Below, one piece after another: positions 26,011 to 37,832 of a stretch of DNA of 37,832 nt. Position numbers and translations under genes: made by a program. The notes below the pieces were generated by a model, which did not search any database, was not told the DNA's origin, and saw only the letters and a list, made by a program, of their open reading frames with translations. Source of the stretch: Pedosphaera sp. (GTDB lineage Bacteria > Verrucomicrobiota > Verrucomicrobiia > Limisphaerales > SIBH01); the NCBI GenBank assembly GCA_031414955.1, contig JANOQV010000169.1, forward strand, positions 1 to 37,832, in the 5' to 3' direction. Numbering within the stretch: the stretch's first letter is position 1; each line of letters opens with the position of its first letter.

Positions 26011-27054
26011 TCACTTGGCGAACTGCGTGCGCACTCGCATGGCCACATCCATGAAGGCGCGGCCCGGTGCGGAGTCGGGGCTGGTCACAACAATGGGCTG
26101 GCCAGCGTCGCCACCTTCGCGAATCTGGATGTAGATGGGAATCTCGCCGAGGAAGGGCGCGTTCTGGCGCACAGCCTCAGCCTTGCCGCCGCCGTGGCCG
26201 AAGAGCTCGATCCGGTCTCCCGTGGGCGTCGTGTAATAACTCATGTTCTCCACCAGGCCGAGGATGGGCACGTTGACCTTGTTGAACATGCCGATGCCTT
26301 TGCGCACCACGCCGAGCGAAGCTTCCTGCGGCGTAGTGATGATGACACCGCCGTCGAGCGGGACGGTCTGGCAGAGGGAAAGTTGCGCGTCGCCGGTGCC
26401 GGGTGGTAGATCGACGAGTAGATAATCGAGTTCGCCCCACTCCACCGAGTGGACGAACTGCGTGATGGTTTTCTGAATCATCGGCCCGCGCCAGATGACG
26501 GGCTGATCGCTGTCGAGCAGGAAGCCCATGCTCATGAGCTTCACGCCGTAATTCTGCGGTGGCACGAGCTTCTCGTCCGCGCTGATGGTGGGGCGCTGCT
26601 TGATGCCCATCATCAGCGGAATGCTCGGGCCGTAGATGTCGCAATCGAGCAGGCCGACGCGTTCGCCGAGTTGCTGGAGCGCGCAGGCGAGGTTCACCGA
26701 GCAGGTGGATTTGCCCACGCCACCCTTGCCGCTGGCGATGGCGACGATGCGTTTGATGTTCGGAAGTTTGTTCGGCTGCGCCATGCCGCCGGGCTGCGAA
26801 CCCACGGGCGCGGCGGGCTGATTGACCTGCACCGAAACCATTTCCACGCCCGCGAGTCCGCGCAGCACGGCCTCCGCATCGGCTTTGATTTTCGCCGCCG
26901 CCTCACTGTTCGGTGCCGTCAGTTGAATCGTGACACTGACCGCGCCGTTGTTGGCCGCGATGTGCTTGACGATCCCGAACGAAACGATGTCGCGCGAGTA
27001 GCCGGGGTATTTGACGGCCTTGAGGGCCTCGAGAATGGATTGGTCGTTGAGCAT
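26011..27054 (-). CDS. mrp: Mrp/NBP35 (ApbC) P-loop ATPase, Fe-S carrier family, lacking the CxxC motif
   Basis: ASGKGGVGKST, DIYGPS, VIWRGPM, DLPPGTGD, ENMS; N-terminal DUF59-like domain. Confidence 0.93.
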   Translation of the reverse strand: MLNDQSILEALKAVKYPGYSRDIVSFGIVKHIAANNGAVSVTIQLTAPNSEAAAKIKADAEAVLRGLAGVEMVSVQVNQPAAPVGSQPGGMAQPNKLPNIKRIVAIASGKGGVGKSTCSVNLACALQQLGERVGLLDCDIYGPSIPLMMGIKQRPTISADEKLVPPQNYGVKLMSMGFLLDSDQPVIWRGPMIQKTITQFVHSVEWGELDYLLVDLPPGTGDAQLSLCQTVPLDGGVIITTPQEASLGVVRKGIGMFNKVNVPILGLVENMSYYTTPTGDRIELFGHGGGKAEAVRQNAPFLGEIPIYIQIREGGDAGQPIVVTSPDSAPGRAFMDVAMRVRTQFAK

Positions 27055-27060
27055 GGTTGT

Positions 27061-27681
27061 TTAAGGCGCGGGAATGGTGCGGAGGTAATCAGAGGCCGCA
27101 AAAATGAAATCGTTGAAAATCAGATTGTCCGCTTGCAGTCCCAGCCGGCGGCAAGTCGGCTCCAGATCGCGAAGGAAAGACTCGTAGTGCGACCAAATCG
27201 CCGCGTCCGACGGGATTACAATTTTTTTGTCGGCGCTCCGCAGCCAGTTCCTCACCAACTGGATGATCAAGCGCGGCTGGCGCTGGTGCGAACGGATGTC
27301 CTGCCCGGAGATGTCCGAGATAAATTTCTGATAGCGGTACGGCTCGCGGTCGAGAATCAGGCAGTTTTTTTGTCGCTGGCGCGGATTGCCGTAGCGTTTC
27401 GCGGCCAGAAAAATTCCAAGTTCGAGCGGCATGTTGAACCGGGGCAACGCCGTGGCCGGGTCCAGCGCCGTGTAGGAAATGTCGTGGATGCCGAGCCGGC
27501 ATTGTTCGACGATGGCGAACAGCTTCTCGATCCGCACCTGGCTGCCATCATCCGCCTCCAAGGCGCAGCGCGGCTCAAAGCCGCAATCCATGACGGCAAA
27601 AACCATCGCGTGGAACAAATCCCAGTGCGTGTGATCGAACGGGGCGTTGATGAAAACGCTGCGGCTGTAGTCGGAAGGCAT
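27061..27681 (-). CDS. Nucleoside-deoxyribosyltransferase/TIR-like fold hypothetical protein
   Basis: SVFINAPFD, RIEKLFAIVEQCRLGIHDIS, PRFNMPLELG pattern typical of NDT/TIR-like Rossmannoid domains. Confidence 0.7.
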   Translation of the reverse strand: MPSDYSRSVFINAPFDHTHWDLFHAMVFAVMDCGFEPRCALEADDGSQVRIEKLFAIVEQCRLGIHDISYTALDPATALPRFNMPLELGIFLAAKRYGNPRQRQKNCLILDREPYRYQKFISDISGQDIRSHQRQPRLIIQLVRNWLRSADKKIVIPSDAAIWSHYESFLRDLEPTCRRLGLQADNLIFNDFIFAASDYLRTIPAP

Positions 27682-27696
27682 CAGGAAGCGTGTGCG

Positions 27697-27852
27697 TCAG
27701 GCGGCGCGCGCCAGTTTTCGCTGCGCCTGTTCCGCCTCCAAACGCTCCTTGATGACTTCGCGAATGACCCGCCGCCATTTCGTCCGGTCAATCAGCCCCG
27801 GCCGGCGCGGCACGATGATCTCGCGGTAAGGCTTTTTCTTCGCCGTCTTCAT
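27697..27852 (-). CDS. 51-aa basic small protein (absent from the ORF track)
   Basis: MKTAKKKPYREIIVPRRPGLIDRTKWRRVIREVIKERLEAEQAQRKLARAA*; ends 15 nt before the next ATG; TTGACT 30-35 nt upstream. Confidence 0.6.
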   Translation of the reverse strand: MKTAKKKPYREIIVPRRPGLIDRTKWRRVIREVIKERLEAEQAQRKLARAA

Positions 27853-28013
27853 GGTGCTTGTATCGTTTCGCGGGCGCAGGGAGTCAAGGAATGGATGGCC
27901 GGTTCTCGTCCGGCAGAATTCTCACGCCGGTTGCAATTCCTTGGCGCGAGCGAGTTCAGCCCGCGCGCCGCGCACCGATTCCTCGGTCAGGCCGGGCGCA
28001 CCTTGCGAGTAAC

Positions 28014-28189
28014 GCTGTGGCGTCAGGCGTCCTCGCCGGACGTAAAGGGCTGGCGTCCCGCCGCCCGGAATGGGCGGCGAACTTCACGGACGCGCGAGGA
28101 AAACTCCAACGCCCTTTGCTGCACCCACGCTGATTCCGCCGGGCGGGACGCCACGACTCTACGGCAGGCAGGATGCCTTCCGCCACAGC
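28014..28189. repeat. Long REP-like inverted repeat (GTGG/GTAG type)
   Basis: Arms 28014-28071 and 28133-28189 are degenerate reverse complements (gctgtggcg...cgccacagc; tggcgtcccgcc / ggcgggacgcca). Confidence 0.75.
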
Positions 28190-28420
28190 CACGGAAATGC
28201 GCGTGCCCCGCACGCGCAAGCTGCCGCCCAGATGTTCAAGACCAGCCACAATCCTATTTCTTCATGGCTTGAGGGGGCTTCGCCCCGCGATTCAGGTCAA
28301 TGCGCCGGCTTGTCTTTGGCGTCTCGTCCGCGACGAAATCGTGAGTGTAGGTGATGGACAAAAATGGAAAACTTTGCTTTGTTTGAATCGTTTTGAATCA
28401 AAATCGAAATCAAAAACCGT

Positions 28421-28720
28421 ATGTCTGATCATTTGCACAAACGAATGCTCCTGGAACGACCGTTCACGAAAGATGGCGATGTCGTTGAGGTCTCCGTTGA
28501 GGTCGATTGCGACACCCAGGCCAATGTTCTCCTGATGGACGATTCCGACTACTCCAATTACAAAGCGGGACGGTCGTACCACTACTACGGGGGTTTCTTC
28601 ACTCATTTCCCGGCGCGTTTGACGCCGCCCCATTCAGGCTACTGGAATGTCGTTCTCGACTTGGGTGGCGGCCGGGCAACGGTACGCCATTCCATGCGCG
28701 TCGTGAGTCACGCCACGTAG
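28421..28720 (+). CDS. DUF1883-like small beta-sandwich protein
   Basis: GDVVEV..QANVLLMDD..Y.YYGG..PARL..PHSGYWNVVLDLGGG pattern recognised by eye. Confidence 0.8.
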   Translation: MSDHLHKRMLLERPFTKDGDVVEVSVEVDCDTQANVLLMDDSDYSNYKAGRSYHYYGGFFTHFPARLTPPHSGYWNVVLDLGGGRATVRHSMRVVSHAT

Positions 28721-28731
28721 GCTCCAAGTCA

Positions 28732-29367
28732 ATGAGCCAACAAGGACTGCGCGACGAATTCCTCGGCACGCTTACGCACATCGAGAGCGTCCTGACGAAA
28801 GTCACCCAGAACAGCGGACCGCGCGGATTCCTTTCCGCACCTGACCTCCATAAACTTTCAGAGGGACTTTTCCTGTCCGCATGGACTCACTGGGAACAGT
28901 TCACGCATTACCTGCTCGTCGAGGATCTCGCCACAAGCACGACTTCAAAACTTCATCGTGGGGTTCGACAATTTCGCACCACAGGTGCGTCGTGGCGGCT
29001 CGCCAATCAACTGCTCAGTCATCCAGACCATCCGCAGAAGTTTGTCGAGTGGTCGGATTACGCGTCGGTTCTGTCGCGCGCGAACGAATTCCTGGGCGCA
29101 GGCAACCGCTTCGCGGCCACACCGCTTCCACGTCGGGGCGATCTTGAATTGCTCAAGCGGGTTCGCAATGCCATCGCCCACCGAAGCGATAGAGCGTGGG
29201 AAAGTTTTCTCAGTCTCTGCCGTGCCAAGCCCTTTGAGATACCGCCCGCCAGAATGAAAGGCATCACCCCGGGTCGCTTCTTGGTCGCGAACACTTGGAA
29301 CGGACAACCTGTATTGCGCGATGCCATTTCAATGCTCGACGGCGCAGCGCGTCACCTTGTTCCGTGA
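28732..29367 (+). CDS. HEPN-domain protein (putative RNase)
   Basis: Predicted all-helical; upstream WEQF glutamate and Rx4H motif RNAIAH; starts 11 nt after the DUF1883 stop. Confidence 0.75.
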   Translation: MSQQGLRDEFLGTLTHIESVLTKVTQNSGPRGFLSAPDLHKLSEGLFLSAWTHWEQFTHYLLVEDLATSTTSKLHRGVRQFRTTGASWRLANQLLSHPDHPQKFVEWSDYASVLSRANEFLGAGNRFAATPLPRRGDLELLKRVRNAIAHRSDRAWESFLSLCRAKPFEIPPARMKGITPGRFLVANTWNGQPVLRDAISMLDGAARHLVP

Positions 29368-29476
29368 ACCAAGCAGTGGGCAGGCGTGCTCATCAGATGG
29401 ATTGACTGGCCACGATACCACGAGCAGGCTTCGTTCATCAGCTCACTGAAACGCGAAAAACTGAACCATTGAATGC

Positions 29477-30586
29477 ATGAGCGATGAATATGGAAAGGCC
29501 ACTTGCTTGCACTGTGGTCAGCGCATCGAATACCCGATGGATTCTGGCGCAGATTCCGTGGAATGCCCGACATGTTTATTCCCCGTGCCGCTTATCCCGG
29601 CAACTCCAGAAAAGAACCCGACCAAAGCCCCGCACCTAAAGCGAACGAAAATCGCGATTTGGAGCACCATGTTGTGTGTGGTTGCGGGGATTTCGGTGAC
29701 AGTCGTGCTGCTCGCTCGTCATAACTACCGACCGTTAGAAGTTCAGTTGGCGGAGCGGAAGGAGAAAGCCCAGACGCTTTGGGCTAAAGCGGACGCGGGG
29801 GATAAAAGCGCAAAAGGGGCTTTGGGTGAAATGTATTGGGGTGTGCCGACCAATTATACCGGCTTTTTGTTCTGGGATTTCAAGTCACCGAAGCTCCGAA
29901 GCGAATTGTTGAACGCGAAGTCCGATTGGTTAAGCGCGGAAAAGAAGGGCCAGATCCAAACGCTTTTTCACAAGGCCGACGCTGGTGACAAAGATGCGCG
30001 CGGAGAATTGGTGCTGGTTGTAATGGGAGACATTTTCCGAATGCTGGAGCGTGAGCGACTCGAAGAAAGCGCGACGCCAGAAGACAAAATAAAGCGGAAA
30101 GTCCACAGCAATTACAACAACGGCTTCGACACTGTTGGCACTGACCATGTTGCCCTTGGAACAAACAGCGACGGAAGTGTTGGAGACCAACCTTCAATAA
30201 GACTTGAACGCAAATGCTATCGAGATGAACCAGCAGAATACCAAGCACAGTTTTACCTCCATGGCAAAGCACCAATCGTACTTTCCAGAGGAAACGCTGT
30301 GCATGTGGTTGTCAATGACACGCGATACACATTTAAGCACGACACCCCAAGCAATGCCTCAACGAATGCCTCCGGGAGGGCCTTCGAGTCGGTCTATTTG
30401 GTTATCAGCCCGGAGGTCGCGTACGCCTTTTTGTCGGCGCGAAGCGGGTATGTCACTTTTGAAGGCGATCTGAGGTTGGTTTCATTCCCCCTTACGAAGG
30501 AGTCGTTGGCAGTGTTCCGGGAATTTGCCGAGCAGTGTAAGCGCAAAGACGATCTTGTTTCCAAACCTGTCAGCGCGAAACCGTGA
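29477..30586 (+). CDS. Membrane-anchored protein: N-terminal Zn ribbon, TM helix, two SEL1-like segments, C-terminal alpha/beta domain
   Basis: CLHC..CPTC; hydrophobic IAIWSTMLCVVAGISVTVVLLA; KADAGDKSAKGALGEMY / KADAGDKDARGELVL; lower GC. Confidence 0.7.
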   Translation: MSDEYGKATCLHCGQRIEYPMDSGADSVECPTCLFPVPLIPATPEKNPTKAPHLKRTKIAIWSTMLCVVAGISVTVVLLARHNYRPLEVQLAERKEKAQTLWAKADAGDKSAKGALGEMYWGVPTNYTGFLFWDFKSPKLRSELLNAKSDWLSAEKKGQIQTLFHKADAGDKDARGELVLVVMGDIFRMLERERLEESATPEDKIKRKVHSNYNNGFDTVGTDHVALGTNSDGSVGDQPSIRLERKCYRDEPAEYQAQFYLHGKAPIVLSRGNAVHVVVNDTRYTFKHDTPSNASTNASGRAFESVYLVISPEVAYAFLSARSGYVTFEGDLRLVSFPLTKESLAVFREFAEQCKRKDDLVSKPVSAKP

Positions 30587-30669
30587 GAAGTTTGAATGTT
30601 CCTTTGCGTCGCCGTTCTTGTTACCACTCAAACCGCTTTACTCGATAGTCGTTGCAACCGTGGCCCAGA

Positions 30670-31935
30670 TTAATGAGCGGCCTTGCCGGACACCGCCGCC
30701 GCGTGCTCGCTGAAGGATTTGCCGCGGCCCGTGGGCGTGATGCACGAGTCGATGATGCCGCGTTGGAACTCGTCCCACATGGGCGACATGTTGCGGAGCT
30801 TGTCCACGATCTTGGCGAACGTCTCGACGACGTAATCCATGTCTTCCTCGGTGTTGTCCTGGCCGAGCGAGATGATGATGTTGCCCTGGGCCAGCGCGTG
30901 GTCGAGTCCGATGGCGGCGAGGACGTGGGAAATTTTCAGCGACTTGCTCACGCAGCTTGAACCGCTGGCCACGGCGATGCCGTTCATGTCGCAGAGCAGC
31001 AACTGGCCTTCGCCTTCGATGAACTCGGTGCTGATGTTCAGGTTCGTGGAGACGCGCTTCGGTCCCGGCTCGGGGCCGTTGAACTTGATGTAGGTGATCT
31101 TGGACTTCAGCCCTTCGTAGAGGCGCTTCTGCAACTTCGCCGTGTGCGCCATGCGCTCCGCCATTTCGCGCAGCGCAATTTCCGCCGCGAGTCCGCCGCC
31201 GACGATGGCCGGAACATTCTCCGTGCCCGCGCGCCGTCCGCCTTCCTGCACGCCGCCGTGAATGATGCTCACCAGCCGCGCCTTGCGGTTGCGGTAGAGC
31301 ACGCCCACGCCCTTCGGCCCGTAGAAACGATGAGGCGAAAACGACAACAGGTTCACGCCCATCGCCTGCACGTCGATCGGCAACCAGCCCGCGCTGGCCT
31401 CGGCATCGACGTAGAACGCGATACCGCGCTCGCCGGCGATTTTCCCGATCTCGCGAATCGGCGCGATGGTCCCGATGTCGTGGTTCACATGATGCACCGC
31501 GATGAGCGTCGTCTTGTCGGTGAGGGCCGCGCGCACGTCCTCGGGATTGATGACGCCTTCCTTGTCCACCTTCACGCGCGTGCAGGTGAAGCCCTGCTTC
31601 TCCAGGAACTCGATGGAGTTCATCACCGCCGGATGCTCGGTCTCGCTCACGACGAGGTGCATGCCCTTGCGCTGGTTCGCGTAAGCCACGCCCTTGATGG
31701 CGAGGTTCGTCGACTCGGTGCCGTCCGAGGTGAAGATGATGTCGTCCGGCGATTCGGCGTTGATGAGCGCGGCGTATTGCGAGCGCGCCTTGGCCAGCGC
31801 ATCGCGCACGCGCAACCCGTGCTGGTGCAGCGATGACGGATTGCCGAACGCCTCGGTGAAGAACGGCTTCATGGCGTCGAACACTTCCGGCAGAACCGGC
31901 GTGCTCGCCTGATGGTCGAGATAAACTTGGCGCAT
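30670..31935 (-). CDS. iscS: IscS/NifS-like protein with degenerate PLP site (probable pseudo-desulfurase)
   Basis: YLDH.ASTP, FGNPSSLH, EHPAV, GPKGVG, RAGTENV, ASGSSC; but SPHR in place of SxHK. Confidence 0.9.
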   Translation of the reverse strand: MRQVYLDHQASTPVLPEVFDAMKPFFTEAFGNPSSLHQHGLRVRDALAKARSQYAALINAESPDDIIFTSDGTESTNLAIKGVAYANQRKGMHLVVSETEHPAVMNSIEFLEKQGFTCTRVKVDKEGVINPEDVRAALTDKTTLIAVHHVNHDIGTIAPIREIGKIAGERGIAFYVDAEASAGWLPIDVQAMGVNLLSFSPHRFYGPKGVGVLYRNRKARLVSIIHGGVQEGGRRAGTENVPAIVGGGLAAEIALREMAERMAHTAKLQKRLYEGLKSKITYIKFNGPEPGPKRVSTNLNISTEFIEGEGQLLLCDMNGIAVASGSSCVSKSLKISHVLAAIGLDHALAQGNIIISLGQDNTEEDMDYVVETFAKIVDKLRNMSPMWDEFQRGIIDSCITPTGRGKSFSEHAAAVSGKAAH

Positions 31936-31946
31936 AAAAAATTGTT

Positions 31947-32258
31947 TCAATCCTCCGCGATCTCGCGGTTCAAGTCGCGTGTCCCGTCCAGCACCCGGTA
32001 AATCAGCACGCGCTCAGGTTCAACCCGGTAGAAGATCAAAAACCGCTTGAATCCTCGCACTTGCCATGAACGAATTTCCGGTCGTCGGAGGTCGTGTCGT
32101 CGTCGGCCTATTTCTGGGTTGGCCCCGATGAAATCAAATGTGGCGTAGGCTGCGCGCCAAAATCTGATCGCACGCTCAGGGTCTTGCCTGCGAATTCGCC
32201 TCCCGATTTCCTGCAAATCGCAGAAAACATACTCGCCTTCTTCCCACGGCAGATTCAT
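31947..32258 (-). CDS. RelE/ParE-family toxin
   Basis: DLQEI, NPEIGRRR, FLIFYRV, IYRVLDGTRDL. Confidence 0.85.
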   Translation of the reverse strand: MNLPWEEGEYVFCDLQEIGRRIRRQDPERAIRFWRAAYATFDFIGANPEIGRRRHDLRRPEIRSWQVRGFKRFLIFYRVEPERVLIYRVLDGTRDLNREIAED

Positions 32259-32467
32259 TCCAAACTTGCCACGAGCTTCTTGATTTGTTCTTCGGGACTG
32301 ACCCTCCGAAATGTTCCGCGCTCGGCTTCGTCCAGTTTCCGCTGAATCTCAATGATCCGTTCCGGCGTTTCCGCAGGCGCGTGCTGAACAATCCAGTCCG
32401 TGATTTCGTAATACTCTGTCGGCGTCAGGCGACCCAAGGCGGCTTTGATTTCAGTGACTGTGCTCAT
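32255..32467 (-). CDS. Putative antitoxin
   Basis: 70 aa directly upstream of the ParE-like toxin with a 4-nt overlap. Confidence 0.75.
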   Translation of the reverse strand: MSTVTEIKAALGRLTPTEYYEITDWIVQHAPAETPERIIEIQRKLDEAERGTFRRVSPEEQIKKLVASLE

Positions 32468-32471
32468 GCGT

Positions 32472-33086
32472 TCACTTTACAGGATGCATCTGCACTCGGA
32501 AAGCCGACTCACCGCCGTCTTTCGTCAGTACGAGTCCGAAGTTGTCGGCGAGCGCCGTCAGCGCCTGTTTGGGCGTAATGTTCCGCCAGCCAAACGAGAC
32601 CGGGCCTTGTTTCTCCATCATCGCGCGGGCAGCCGGATCAATGTTCAGCGTCACTTGTGCCGCTTCTCCAAGTCTCGTGAACGCCTCGGCGAGCGGCATG
32701 AACTCCACGCCGATGCGCGGTATCGCGCGCCCAGAGTCAACACCCAGGCTGTTCGTCGGGAATGGTGTCGCAGCCACCGTCGCAGGCACGATTCGCATCA
32801 CTGAAGTCGCGCGGTTCGTGATGGCAACTAAGCGATTTTCAGTGAGCAATCTTTGAAACCCGTGTGCCGCCGTTACGTTAGTCCATTGAACGGACACTTT
32901 AGGTTCCGATGCCGCCTGGCCCGAGCCGGACACTTGAGGATCCACAAAAATGTTCAACTCCGCTTGCGATGCGAGATTGCCAATCGCCGCCGTGAGCGGA
33001 ACATCTTTAAGCTCAATTCTCGGCAGCGCTTCCTGCGCGAACACCGGCAGCGCGGCACAGAGAGTGATGACCAGCAGGCGCATCAT
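32472..33086 (-). CDS. Exported protein with two STN / secretin-N0-like domains
   Basis: Signal peptide ..PVFA; repeated units IELKDVPLTAAIGNLASQAELNIFVDP..VSVQWTNVT and IGVEFMPLAEAFTRLGEAAQVTLNIDP..VSFGWRNIT. Confidence 0.7.
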   Translation of the reverse strand: MMRLLVITLCAALPVFAQEALPRIELKDVPLTAAIGNLASQAELNIFVDPQVSGSGQAASEPKVSVQWTNVTAAHGFQRLLTENRLVAITNRATSVMRIVPATVAATPFPTNSLGVDSGRAIPRIGVEFMPLAEAFTRLGEAAQVTLNIDPAARAMMEKQGPVSFGWRNITPKQALTALADNFGLVLTKDGGESAFRVQMHPVK

Positions 33087-33111
33087 GCCTCGGAGTTGCA
33101 AGGTTTCAGCC

Positions 33112-33531
33112 TCAAGCCGGAACTGCCTCGGCCCGTTTTGCCGCCTCGGGATGCTTCTTCAAGTAATCCTCCAGCGCGGCCTTGAGCGCTTCTTCCGCGA
33201 GCACGGAGCAGTGAATCTTCACCGGCGGCAATCCACCCAGCGCGTCCACGACTTCCTGGTTCGAGAAGTTCATCGCTTCGTCGATGGTGCGGCCCTTGAT
33301 CAGTTCCGTGGCCATGCTGCTGCTGGCGATGGCCGAGCCGCAGCCGAAGGTCTTGAAGCGCGCGTCCTCGATCTTGCCGTCCTTGATCTTGAGGCTGATC
33401 TTCATGATGTCGCCGCACGCCGCCGCGCCGACTTCGCCGATGCCGTCGGCGTCCTTCACGTCGCCCATGTTGCGCGGGTTCATGAAGTGATCCATCACCG
33501 TCTGGTTGTAGAGTGTGTAAGTTTCGCTCAT
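33112..33531 (-). CDS. iscU: Fe-S cluster scaffold IscU/NifU
   Basis: DHFMNPRN, CGD, FKTFGCGSAIASS, LPPVKIHC. Confidence 0.96.
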   Translation of the reverse strand: MSETYTLYNQTVMDHFMNPRNMGDVKDADGIGEVGAAACGDIMKISLKIKDGKIEDARFKTFGCGSAIASSSMATELIKGRTIDEAMNFSNQEVVDALGGLPPVKIHCSVLAEEALKAALEDYLKKHPEAAKRAEAVPA

Positions 33532-33539
33532 AAGAATTT

Positions 33540-34013
33540 TCAGTTTTTAAGTTCGAGTTTCATTCCGCCCCGACGCGCGACCGAGCGGTGACTGTCACCG
33601 ACCGGCACATGCGTCTTCATCAAATCCGCGAGAGTTGTCCGGGAAAATACATCCTTCACCCGATCCTGCGCCTGCTCGAACAGGCCGCACAGCGCGCAGC
33701 CGCCGTGATGTTCACACTTCGGCTCGTCTTCTGAGAGGCAGCGTTGGAAAGCGATCTTGCCTTCAATGGCCTCAATGACTTCGAGCACCGTTACATCGCG
33801 CGGCGCTTTGAGCAGGGTGAAGCCGCCGCCGCTGCCGCGATTGGATTTCACCAGGCCCGCCTTGGCCAGCGACTGGAAAATCTTGGCCGCAAAACTCTTT
33901 GGGATGCGCTCCTCGCGGCTCACCTCGTCTATCATCACCACCGAGGCAGCAGGCCGCCGGGCCAGGCACATCAGGCCCAGCACCGCATATTCTCCTGCTC
34001 GTGTGATTTGCAT
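33540..34013 (-). CDS. Rrf2-family (IscR-like) Fe-S transcriptional regulator
   Basis: ITRAGEYAV, LVKSNRGSGGGF, EVIEAIEG, C-X7-C-X5-C-X2-C, RTTLADL. Confidence 0.93.
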   Translation of the reverse strand: MQITRAGEYAVLGLMCLARRPAASVVMIDEVSREERIPKSFAAKIFQSLAKAGLVKSNRGSGGGFTLLKAPRDVTVLEVIEAIEGKIAFQRCLSEDEPKCEHHGGCALCGLFEQAQDRVKDVFSRTTLADLMKTHVPVGDSHRSVARRGGMKLELKN

Positions 34014-34023
34014 CGTTTGGTTA

Positions 34024-34083
34024 AACCGGACGGGATTAGTCCGATTCGCGAATTGAATATAGAAGGGGTGAACCGGGTGTCAA
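34024..34083 (-). promoter_or_regulatory. Sigma70 promoter plus palindromic operator of the Fe-S operon
   Basis: TTGACA-N16-TATATT (34083-34056); AACCGGAC-N7-GTCCGATT palindrome (34024-34046) just downstream of the predicted start site. Confidence 0.75.
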
Positions 34084-36812: not shown

Positions 36813-37832
36813 GGAGACGCTGAATAAAGCCAAGTTTTCAAATTTCAGTTTGTGCTGACGGGAAAGTCATCCTCAAGCAACAGAGATTCGCCTCTGGCGG
36901 CCTGGGTCGCGGGTCGGTTCTGGGTGGGGGGCGGGGTTGAACCGCTTTTTGCACCGCTTCAACAGGTTTGATTCATGTTTTTTCACGCCGTGGCCCGCCG
37001 CGCCCCGATCACGACATTGGCCAGACCAAAGAGCGTGTAGAGTTGATGCCCGTTCTTCGCCAGCCCTCGATACCGCACTTTCCGGTGCCGAAATAAATTC
37101 TTCACAATGTGGAAGGGATGTTCCACGAACGCCCGCACCGACGCCTTCGTTTTCTCCACCGCCTTGCGGGCCTCCTTCTCCGCGCCTTCAGCCAGCACCT
37201 TGAGCAGGCCGCGTTTGCCTGCGATCTGCCAGTCAATCTTCCGTTCCAGCGCCGCAATCTCCGCCCGCTTCTCCACGCCGGTGTATCCGGCGTCGCCGTG
37301 GACTTGCGTCTCCTCGCCATGCAGCAGTTCCACCGTCTTGGTGAGGTCGGCCACATTCGCCGCCGTCACGACCACGGTATGCACCAGCTTGCTGTCACGG
37401 TCCGCACCGATGTGCGCTTTCATCCCGAAATACCATTGGTTGCCTTTGCGGGTCTGGTGCATTTCGGGGTCGCGTTCCTTCTTCTGATTCTTGGTCGAGG
37501 GCGGCGCGGCAATCAGCGTGGCGTCCACCAGCGTGCCTGCGCGCAGCAGCAGACCGCGCGCGGCGAGGTCGATGTTGATGGCGGTGAAGAGTCCCTTGCA
37601 CAGGTCGTGCGTTTCGAGCCGGCGACGGAAGTTCAAGAGGGTGGTGGCGTCGGGCACGCCCTCGGCACTCAGGTCAATACGGGCAAAGTGCTGCAACGCC
37701 TGGCTGTCGTAGAGGGCGTCTTCGAGGGCTTCGTCGGCCAGCGCATACCATTGCTGGAGGAAATAGACGCGCAGCATCCGTTCCAGACCGATGGGCGGAC
37801 GTCCGCGCTTGCCCCTGGGATAATGCGGCGCA
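36813..37832 (-). mobile_element. IS5-family insertion sequence (cut by the window edge)
   Basis: End GGAGACGCTGAATAA preceded by TTAG (YTAR-type target); contains a transposase. Confidence 0.85.
36983..37832 (-). CDS. IS5-family DDE transposase (5' end outside the window)
   Basis: Frame open to the edge (..GRPPIGLERMLRVYFLQQWY); VPDATT, VDATLI, GNQWYFGMKAHIG, HGDAGY, RAFVEHPF, VRYRGLAKN. Confidence 0.96.
   Translation of the reverse strand, partial: APHYPRGKRGRPPIGLERMLRVYFLQQWYALADEALEDALYDSQALQHFARIDLSAEGVPDATTLLNFRRRLETHDLCKGLFTAINIDLAARGLLLRAGTLVDATLIAAPPSTKNQKKERDPEMHQTRKGNQWYFGMKAHIGADRDSKLVHTVVVTAANVADLTKTVELLHGEETQVHGDAGYTGVEKRAEIAALERKIDWQIAGKRGLLKVLAEGAEKEARKAVEKTKASVRAFVEHPFHIVKNLFRHRKVRYRGLAKNGHQLYTLFGLANVVIGARRATA

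Follow-up and report, generated by a model that had tools for sequence, protein, structure and literature searches.

The published cases considered here of IscS proteins without the lysine (Lys) that forms the Schiff base with pyridoxal phosphate (PLP), those of Archaeoglobus fulgidus and Methanosarcina acetivorans, are from anaerobic archaea. IscS of A. fulgidus was reported to be inactive, to give a Cys ligand to the iron-sulfur (Fe-S) cluster on IscU and to bind pyridoxamine phosphate (PMP), and that paper states the role and the sulfur source of Lys-less IscS as open (PMC8918507). In M. acetivorans, a Lys-less IscS is encoded beside iscU (IscS1-IscU1, MA0808/MA0807) in a genome that also contains active IscS paralogues (PMC7585200). 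The window analysed here, the whole 37,832-nucleotide stretch of contig JANOQV010000169.1 (assembly GCA_031414955.1) from a Pedosphaera sp. of the Verrucomicrobiota, encodes an IscS homologue that, together with its clade, is designated IscS*. It is a selected and conserved pseudo-desulfurase, as a preliminary description of the same DNA had proposed. On balance, it is best regarded as a non-catalytic partner of IscU, with Cys328 serving as cluster ligand or persulfide relay, fed with sulfur by an intact NifS encoded elsewhere (NifS-A).

Comparison of IscS* with A. fulgidus IscS2 (IscS2-IscU, PDB accession no. 4eb5, 4eb7 and 4hvk; D199K, 4r5f) shows a common fold (template modelling (TM) score 0.83-0.85), and in both proteins Lys, Gln and Arg of the active site are lost and the loop Cys is kept. 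They differ at the Lys position, which is Arg in IscS* and Asp in A. fulgidus, and D153, H152, W184 and Q269 are specific to the IscS* clade. Unlike A. fulgidus, the host of IscS* possesses an oxidase and three intact desulfurases and is without Dsr; one of the desulfurases appears to be co-regulated in some relatives. The arrangement of M. acetivorans is shared in that a Lys-less IscS gene lies beside iscU with active paralogues elsewhere in the genome; that anaerobic archaeon has several IscU copies and SufBC, whereas the source genome has one IscU and no SufB/D. MIS has been described as a desulfurase-scaffold pair, MisS-MisU (PMC13066941). It resembles the present system in that an IscU-type scaffold occurs without HscB in the source genome; here, however, the linked counterpart of MisS is without the catalytic residues, the intact NifS is on another contig, and IscS* is accompanied by an Rrf2 regulator, by ApbC and by two A-type carriers. 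SufE, SufU and CsdE are non-catalytic persulfide relays with one essential Cys, acting between desulfurase and scaffold. Their role would be similar to that of IscS* if the relay reading holds, relay by IscS* being hypothetical, and their fold is unrelated. Lys-less IscS is therefore already known, and what is new is a separate clade, found in bacteria that have an oxidase and mostly no SUF, with no TusA/DsrE match in the source genome. A literature search, with most subscription papers outside its reach, returned no paper on the SPHR clade to which IscS* belongs, none dealing with how these bacteria assemble Fe-S clusters and none describing a heterodimer of a desulfurase and its dead paralogue.

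Active site of IscS* and its clade

The gene and the residues that define it are as follows.

30670..31935, minus strand: iscS*, 421-aa IscS/NifS-fold pseudo-desulfurase of the SPHR clade
31327..31329, minus strand: Arg203 (CGT codon) at the position of the PLP Schiff-base Lys
30874..30876, minus strand: Ile354 at the position of the substrate-carboxylate Arg
31396..31401, minus strand: Glu179-Ala180, the Gln of the DAxQ motif being gone
31723..31725, minus strand: Asp71 in the phosphate loop, subclade-specific
30952..30954, minus strand: Cys328, the invariant loop cysteine

The open reading frame (ORF) of 421 aa has no internal stops and a GC content of 0.63; its GC content at third codon positions is 0.88, compared with 0.83 for groEL and 0.82 for both dnaK and ileS, in agreement with the full-length ORF of housekeeping-like codon style first described. 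The motifs named at that time (SPHR, NIIIS, VNHD, DAEA, SDGT, ASGSSC, EHPAV and RAGT) were all found in place. In the alignment to the solved canonical desulfurase 9wep, the Lys of 'ahk' corresponds to R203, the Gln of 'davq' to A180, the Glu of 'nnei' to D153 and the Arg of 'vrfs' to I354, and H101, D177, T238 and C328 are retained. IscS* scores under every curated NifS/IscS cut-off (TIGR03402, the best, 443.5 against 530.75; TIGR02006, 388.1 against 643.2; NF010611, 386.4 against 548). The predicted structure (predicted local distance difference test, pLDDT, 87.5) matches NFS1, E. coli IscS and A. fulgidus IscS with TM scores of 0.83-0.88 and conforms to fold type I with a long flexible Cys loop; loop 325-333 is of low confidence, as expected for a mobile loop.

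Conservation was assessed in the best 120 of 3941 protein homologues (78-94% identical; 8000 candidates scored), in the best 80 of 141 genome loci (close loci, their titles mostly Verrucomicrobiota metagenome-assembled genomes), in 40 loci hand-picked for spread (spread loci, 41-73% identical to IscS*) and in 82 aligned clade rows, from which fragments, over-long rows, P0144 and P0130 were omitted. The 97 canonical rows used for comparison are by definition those with both Lys and Arg. Cys328 is invariant throughout (120/120 best homologues, 80/80 close loci, 40/40 spread loci and 82/82 clade rows). Arg is absent from position 354 in all of the best homologues, close loci and spread loci (0/120, 0/80 and 0/40) and occurs there in four of the 82 clade rows; Ile is found in 120/120 best homologues, and L, I, M, S and V occur across the clade. 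Gln180 is found in 0/120 best homologues and 0/82 clade rows, and D153 is present in 120/120 best homologues. At position 203, 107 of the best homologues carry Arg and 13 carry Lys, the 13 still being without the substrate Arg and the Gln; Arg203 is kept in 79/80 close loci, 38/40 spread loci and 72/82 clade rows, Lys occurring in three of the latter. Close orthologues with both the canonical Lys and Arg, named in the preliminary description as a sign of decay in one strain, were thus not found, 120/120 best homologues being without the Arg. The ratio of nonsynonymous to synonymous substitution rates (dN/dS) of iscS* against 11 relatives is 0.045-0.226 in 11/11 pairs, similar to that of iscU (0.068-0.163, 6 pairs). 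Strain decay or sequence error as the origin of the residue losses is ruled out by the clade-wide conservation and these ratios.

Activity of E. coli IscS is lost in K206A and Q183E and retained in R354K (PMC9978102); no basic residue is left at position 354 of IscS*. Since Lys, Gln and Arg are all gone in the clade and the E. coli K206A and Q183E proteins are inactive, we strongly infer that IscS* is catalytically inactive, and the genes of the SPHR clade, named 'cysteine desulfurase' wherever named, are probably mislabelled. The earlier claim that the PLP and substrate site had been dismantled holds for Lys, Gln and Arg, but not for D177, H101, T73, N151, S200 and H202, which are kept in 80, 76, 70, 68, 65 and 62 of the 82 clade rows, respectively. 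To judge from the alignments, the pocket is remodelled and not erased, its cofactor site being dismantled only in part. That IscS* is independent of PLP, as first proposed, is at best a possibility, because several cofactor contacts are kept and A. fulgidus IscS, without the same Lys, Gln and Arg, still binds PMP. T238 drifts, being kept in 51/82 clade rows and 24/40 spread loci compared with 96/97 canonical rows. D71 and E179 are each present in 77/80 close loci, compared with only 9/40 and 7/40 spread loci, and mark mainly the close subclade; all 17 of the 82 clade rows with D71 carry E or D at 179.

These features bear on the possibility that IscS* is a re-purposed enzyme, holding a B6 vitamer (PMP or PLP) non-covalently and performing other chemistry with Cys328. 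Fold type I includes PMP enzymes that have no Lys. The largely kept D177, H101, N151, S200 and H202, an Arg203 that is positively fixed and not drifting, and the PMP bound by A. fulgidus IscS (PMC8918507) are all consistent with such an enzyme; the substrate Arg, however, has no conserved replacement, Asp71 and Glu179 would, by alignment, point into the pocket in the close subclade, and the genetic context is an Fe-S operon. We consider this explanation very unlikely.

Trees were built with two fast methods after removal of the diagnostic columns. The SPHR clade forms one side of a branch both with FastTree (193 rows, support 100) and with IQ-TREE in quick mode (49 hand-chosen rows, support 99), and its neighbours in both trees are 11 other degenerate IscS proteins. 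These adjoining proteins (P0129, P0138, P0159, P0160, P0173, P0183, P0186, P0194, P0245, P0255 and P0130) are without the substrate Arg and Gln, and one cluster of them is from Chloroflexi; a wider family of dead IscS proteins may exist. P0156, used as a proxy for A. fulgidus-type IscS, as the A. fulgidus sequence itself was outside the trees, groups with canonical enzymes and away from the SPHR clade in both (support 97 with IQ-TREE). With this proxy and these fast trees, the residue loss in the SPHR clade looks independent of that in A. fulgidus.

Predicted docking of IscS* on IscU

30985..31023, minus strand: IscU-docking helix, residues 305-317 (E307, E309, L313)
30772..30792, minus strand: C-terminal IscU-docking segment, residues 382-388, after R381
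33112..33531, minus strand: iscU, 139 aa, with three Cys, Asp, His and LPPVK intact (TIGR03419, 198.2 over the cut-off of 187.9)

E. coli IscS binds IscU through Arg379-Lys391, Glu309-Ala316 and Glu347 (PMC2854127). Among the 82 clade rows, E309 is kept in 82, L313 in 81, R381 in 80 and E307 in 76, and W387 in 59 of the 61 rows reaching that position; the conservation of E309 and R381 matches that of canonical enzymes. The pattern LRxxSPxW is present in 120/120 best homologues. Prediction of a complex of the IscS* dimer with IscU and [2Fe-2S] gave a score of 0.67, compared with 0.00 for the best of three controls, on a scale whose mark is reached by 116/157 solved pairs and 2/215 mismatched pairs. 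Contacts agreed by at least 78% between runs, the partner pLDDT was at least 86, and the predicted interface lies at residues 305-317 and 382-388. This model shows likeness only and is not proof of binding, because IscS-IscU complexes have already been solved.

Distribution of IscS* and its scaffold

In the source genome (95.9% complete, 5.8% contaminated), the intact IscU of the window is the one NifU_N protein, and no match to SufB/D (PF01458), TusA (PF01206) or DsrE2 (PF13686) was found. Neither was a match to HscB, HscA not having been searched. Among related loci, tusA and dsrE do not recur as neighbours of iscS* either. Two A-type carriers and MnmA are present, as is a heme-copper oxidase, and no DsrA was found over the cut-off. 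Because there is one IscU and no SufB/D, the IscU/IscS* system looks indispensable in this genome.

Occurrence was counted in 201 genomes of the order Limisphaerales, each at least 90% complete; as all genome counts are among kin, they describe a pattern and are not an independent test. IscS* was found in 112/201 of these genomes and, with the clade profile, in 2/300 other Verrucomicrobiota genomes (536 and 488 bits, next 417; at most six candidates scored per genome). The next 27 matches of the profile outside the order are canonical desulfurases. The window IscU type (E below 1e-37) is present in 48/201 genomes, all 48 with IscS*, and in 0/89 IscS*-negative genomes. IscU of at least 80% identity occurs in 39 genomes, all with IscS* and 33 without SufB. 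SufB was not found in 39/201 genomes, among which are these 33, and is missing in only 6/162 genomes without such an IscU; five SUF-negative relatives (two single-contig) likewise gave no match to PF01458 (5/5). This co-occurrence agrees with the minimal Fe-S system tied to IscU that was first suggested, and it is proposed that such a system has taken the place of SUF in some members of the order.

The IscU partner is not uniform among IscS* genomes. In the 64 without the window IscU type, a more distant IscU- or SufU-like match was obtained in 56 and none in eight. SUF-bearing relatives possess a second IscU-like protein with three Cys (L166:6018-6503, L171:5897-6959, L172, L173), often following a rhodanese-domain protein near the suf operon, which is a candidate IscS* partner where the window IscU type is missing. 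In SUF-bearing genomes, window-type IscU is 49-73% identical with LPPVK lost (L115:7202-7603, L133:5549-5926, L169, L170, L174), the second Cys also being lost in L115; this divergence suggests relaxed selection where SUF is present. Members of the distant family f90 (L116, L140, L145) have IscS* of about 60% identity, NifS-A of 63-67% and an adjoining IscU of 80-82%, and gave no match to SufB; SUF may have been lost independently a second time in this family.

NifS-A as candidate sulfur donor and its regulation

Source-genome contig C296:15729-16967: NifS-A, an intact NifS unlinked to the window
33540..34013, minus strand: rrf2-family regulator with a four-Cys motif
34025..34045, no strand assigned: palindromic operator, 12 bp upstream of the start of rrf2 (strict pattern and weight matrix)

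A search for a second, canonical desulfurase, as first advised, gave three intact type I desulfurases in the source genome. NifS-A is the only one of the two that were scored to pass the NifS cut-off (565.8 over 530.75) and it has the C-terminal segment by which E. coli IscS binds IscU. It was found in 161/201 genomes, comprising 108/112 with IscS* and 53/89 without. The tail was scored in 149 of the 161 genomes, from the point at which the alignment ended (the others were unlisted, and one fragment was dropped). It is kept in 33/37 genomes with IscU of at least 80% identity, 7/9 with diverged IscU, 5/56 with IscS* only and 2/47 IscS*-negative genomes; at matched identity of 70-79%, the values for the same groups are 15/15, 6/8, 5/29 and 2/32.

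The four-Cys pattern of Rrf2 is present in 62/62 related loci, and the window protein is a probable Fe-S-sensing repressor. The strict operator pattern was found in 39/63 upstream regions of rrf2 (1.4% of shuffles), and a relaxed pattern, written after viewing the sites, in 61/61; two copies are present in 34/61 relatives. We take the rrf2-promoter site to resemble IscR type-1 operators. A sigma-70-like promoter (TTGACA, 16 nt, TATATT; 34056-34083, minus strand) lies directly upstream of it. A weight matrix trained solely on rrf2-promoter sites found eight sites scoring at least 15 in the source genome (6.5 Mb), that of the window being the best (23.5). The operator was also found 21-59 nt upstream of nifS-A in 11/36 genomes with IscU of at least 80% identity (2/8 and 9/28 pooled, three of the 39 such genomes being outside the count), compared with 0/24 others; the 11 are all without a SufB match and come from three families. 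With the operon's operator in front of nifS-A in these genomes, the regulator of the operon seems to control active NifS-A in part of the group. The sulfur is probably supplied by NifS-A.

Sulfur had initially been thought to come from sulfide or from another enzyme. The NifS-A tail, operator and co-occurrence speak for another enzyme, and free sulfide is not favoured because of the heme-copper oxidase, the absence of DsrA over the cut-off and the three intact type I desulfurases. A system in which IscS* does no more than donate a ligand, and in which no desulfurase takes part because the sulfur is free sulfide (assimilatory sulfite reductase being one conceivable source), has a precedent in A. 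fulgidus (PMC8918507). Anaerobic E. coli without IscS is rescued by sulfide via IscU (PMC13015791), and a CysI-like gene is also divergent to nifS-A in many relatives. TusA and DsrE2 are, however, without a match in the source genome, and the tracking of the window IscU type by the NifS-A tail and operator points to NifS-A serving IscU, so that we consider this system quite improbable. The CysI-like assimilatory sulfite reductase gene beside nifS-A is seen in genomes with and without IscS*, and a CysI match was confirmed in 3/3 genes tested (loci among L242-L249, L251, L253 and L259; first 850 nt).

It was also considered whether IscS* and NifS-A form an obligate heterodimer, with a single active site, in which the dead subunit completes the partner's PLP pocket and presents IscU or a second cysteine. 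Almost every genome with IscS* also has NifS-A (108/112), and the shared operator suggests co-expression. E74, N77, P207, G209, G227, E231, R235 and G237, which we take to be dimer surface, are near-invariant in the clade rows. T238, which in canonical enzymes presumably reaches into the partner subunit's phosphate site, drifts in the clade, however; NifS-A is found without IscS* in 53 genomes, and the two genes are adjacent in no locus seen. An obligate heterodimer is therefore unlikely.

Gene neighbourhood

31947..33101, minus strand: lineage-specific insert between iscU and iscS*, with a 209-aa ORF, a 70-aa putative antitoxin and a ParE toxin
26011..27054, minus strand: apbC/mrp, P-loop Fe-S carrier without the C-terminal CxxC

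The gene order in close relatives is rrf2-iscU-iscS*-apbC, the clade and neighbourhood having been searched for as initially recommended. Around iscS* in the 80 close loci, iscU is upstream in 67, as is rrf2 in 64, and apbC is downstream in 56; the gap between iscU and iscS* is below 200 bp in 55 of the 67 relatives with both. In the window, iscS* does lie downstream of an intact iscU, as stated earlier, but 1176 bp away, with the toxin-antitoxin pair and the 209-aa ORF between them. This insert has a GC content of 0.54-0.59 compared with 0.63 for iscS*. The ParE toxin and the overlapping putative antitoxin (31947-32467, minus strand) are thus inside the Fe-S operon; parE-like genes occur at the same place in L032, L050 and L069, and the interval is a possible insertion hot spot. 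Between iscS* and apbC, the window has 3.6 kb of DNA of lower GC content (27055-30669), with a DUF1883 protein and three ORFs without a Pfam match. An IS5-like transposase ORF was identified by eye at the window end (36983-37777).

RNA data were available from 18 runs, with only 5-11% of words present. In four of these, contigs of relatives cover rrf2, iscU and iscS*, and hardly the insert. Two contigs join iscS* to iscU across it; these contigs are silent on transcription or its level and were not used as support.

The clade proved wider than its iscU-linked operon, a point beyond the preliminary description. Within about 6 kb, spread loci have an apbC neighbour in 14/40 and iscU in only 6/40, and because of the latter value the operon is a feature of part of the SPHR clade. 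At iscS* promoters without an adjacent rrf2, no operator site scoring at least 15 was found, one reaching 8.1. IscS* might have a job independent of IscU, as a relay to tRNA thiolation or another acceptor or as a partner of ApbC, and have been recruited into the iscU operon later. The excess of apbC over iscU neighbours, the two members outside the order with neither gene nearby and the eight IscS* genomes without any IscU-like match are in keeping with this. The IscU-docking residues are, however, kept throughout the clade, none of mnmA, thiI and tusA recurs among the iscS* neighbours, and ApbC is near-universal in the order (195/201 genomes). We give such an independent job little credence.

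ApbC/Mrp across the order is without the C-terminal CxxC and the N-terminal-domain Cys (loci L002-L152 and L216-L240). The CxxC is missing in all IscS*-linked ApbC with the region covered, and equally in 20/20 IscS*-negative genomes of the order and in 5/5 other Verrucomicrobiae ApbC (three with no Cys, two with one). A role of IscS* as supplier of Cys ligands to CxxC-less ApbC was rejected, as the CxxC loss is not IscS*-specific. No divergent iscS* remnants were found upstream of apbC in the 20 IscS*-negative genomes. A conserved protein of about 72 aa, with no NCBIfam match, follows apbC and precedes pyrR-pyrB across the order (e.g. L114:8390-8605); it was not seen in the window.

Proposed role of IscS*

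We propose that IscS* works within a minimal, Rrf2-regulated Fe-S assembly system. It would have retained the IscS fold, the surfaces for dimer formation and for docking on IscU, and Cys328 in its mobile loop, but be unable to form a PLP aldimine or to hold the carboxylate of cysteine. Unlinked NifS-A would break cysteine to supply sulfur, and IscS* would dock on IscU and insert Cys328 into the cluster site. Cys328 may then hold the nascent [2Fe-2S] for a time as its fourth ligand, in the manner of A. fulgidus, or act as a relay for persulfide received from NifS-A.

Several observations weigh against this proposal. The Glu347 contact of E. coli IscS (PMC2854127) is Ala in IscS*, with Glu in 16/82 clade rows, and Cys328 lies outside the confidently placed contacts of the predicted complex. 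IscS* is found without the window IscU type in 64/112 genomes and with iscU nearby in only six of the spread loci, and six genomes with IscU of at least 80% identity still match SufB. No operator precedes nifS-A in 25/36 genomes, the source genome included, the 11 matches coming from just three families. NifS-A also retains its own IscU-docking motifs and could load IscU alone, which leaves the need for IscS* unexplained.

A more far-reaching form of the proposal, which we regard as doubtful though worth stating, is a system of divided labour. Active NifS and dead IscS* would share a single IscU as docking partner, either by turns or joined in a heterodimer, and the dead protein would be obligatory for cluster holding, sulfur-loading or release in place of HscAB; such a system would have let oxygen-respiring Limisphaerales drop SUF.

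Significance

The SPHR clade offers a cleaner test of Lys-less IscS than the archaeal cases: there is a single scaffold and no SUF, a candidate donor can be named, and the cysteine concerned is invariant. Three proteins (IscS*, NifS-A and IscU) suffice to separate the ligand, relay, heterodimer and sulfide models. The clade would part the scaffold-side role of IscS from catalysis, which bears on the mechanism of ISC generally.

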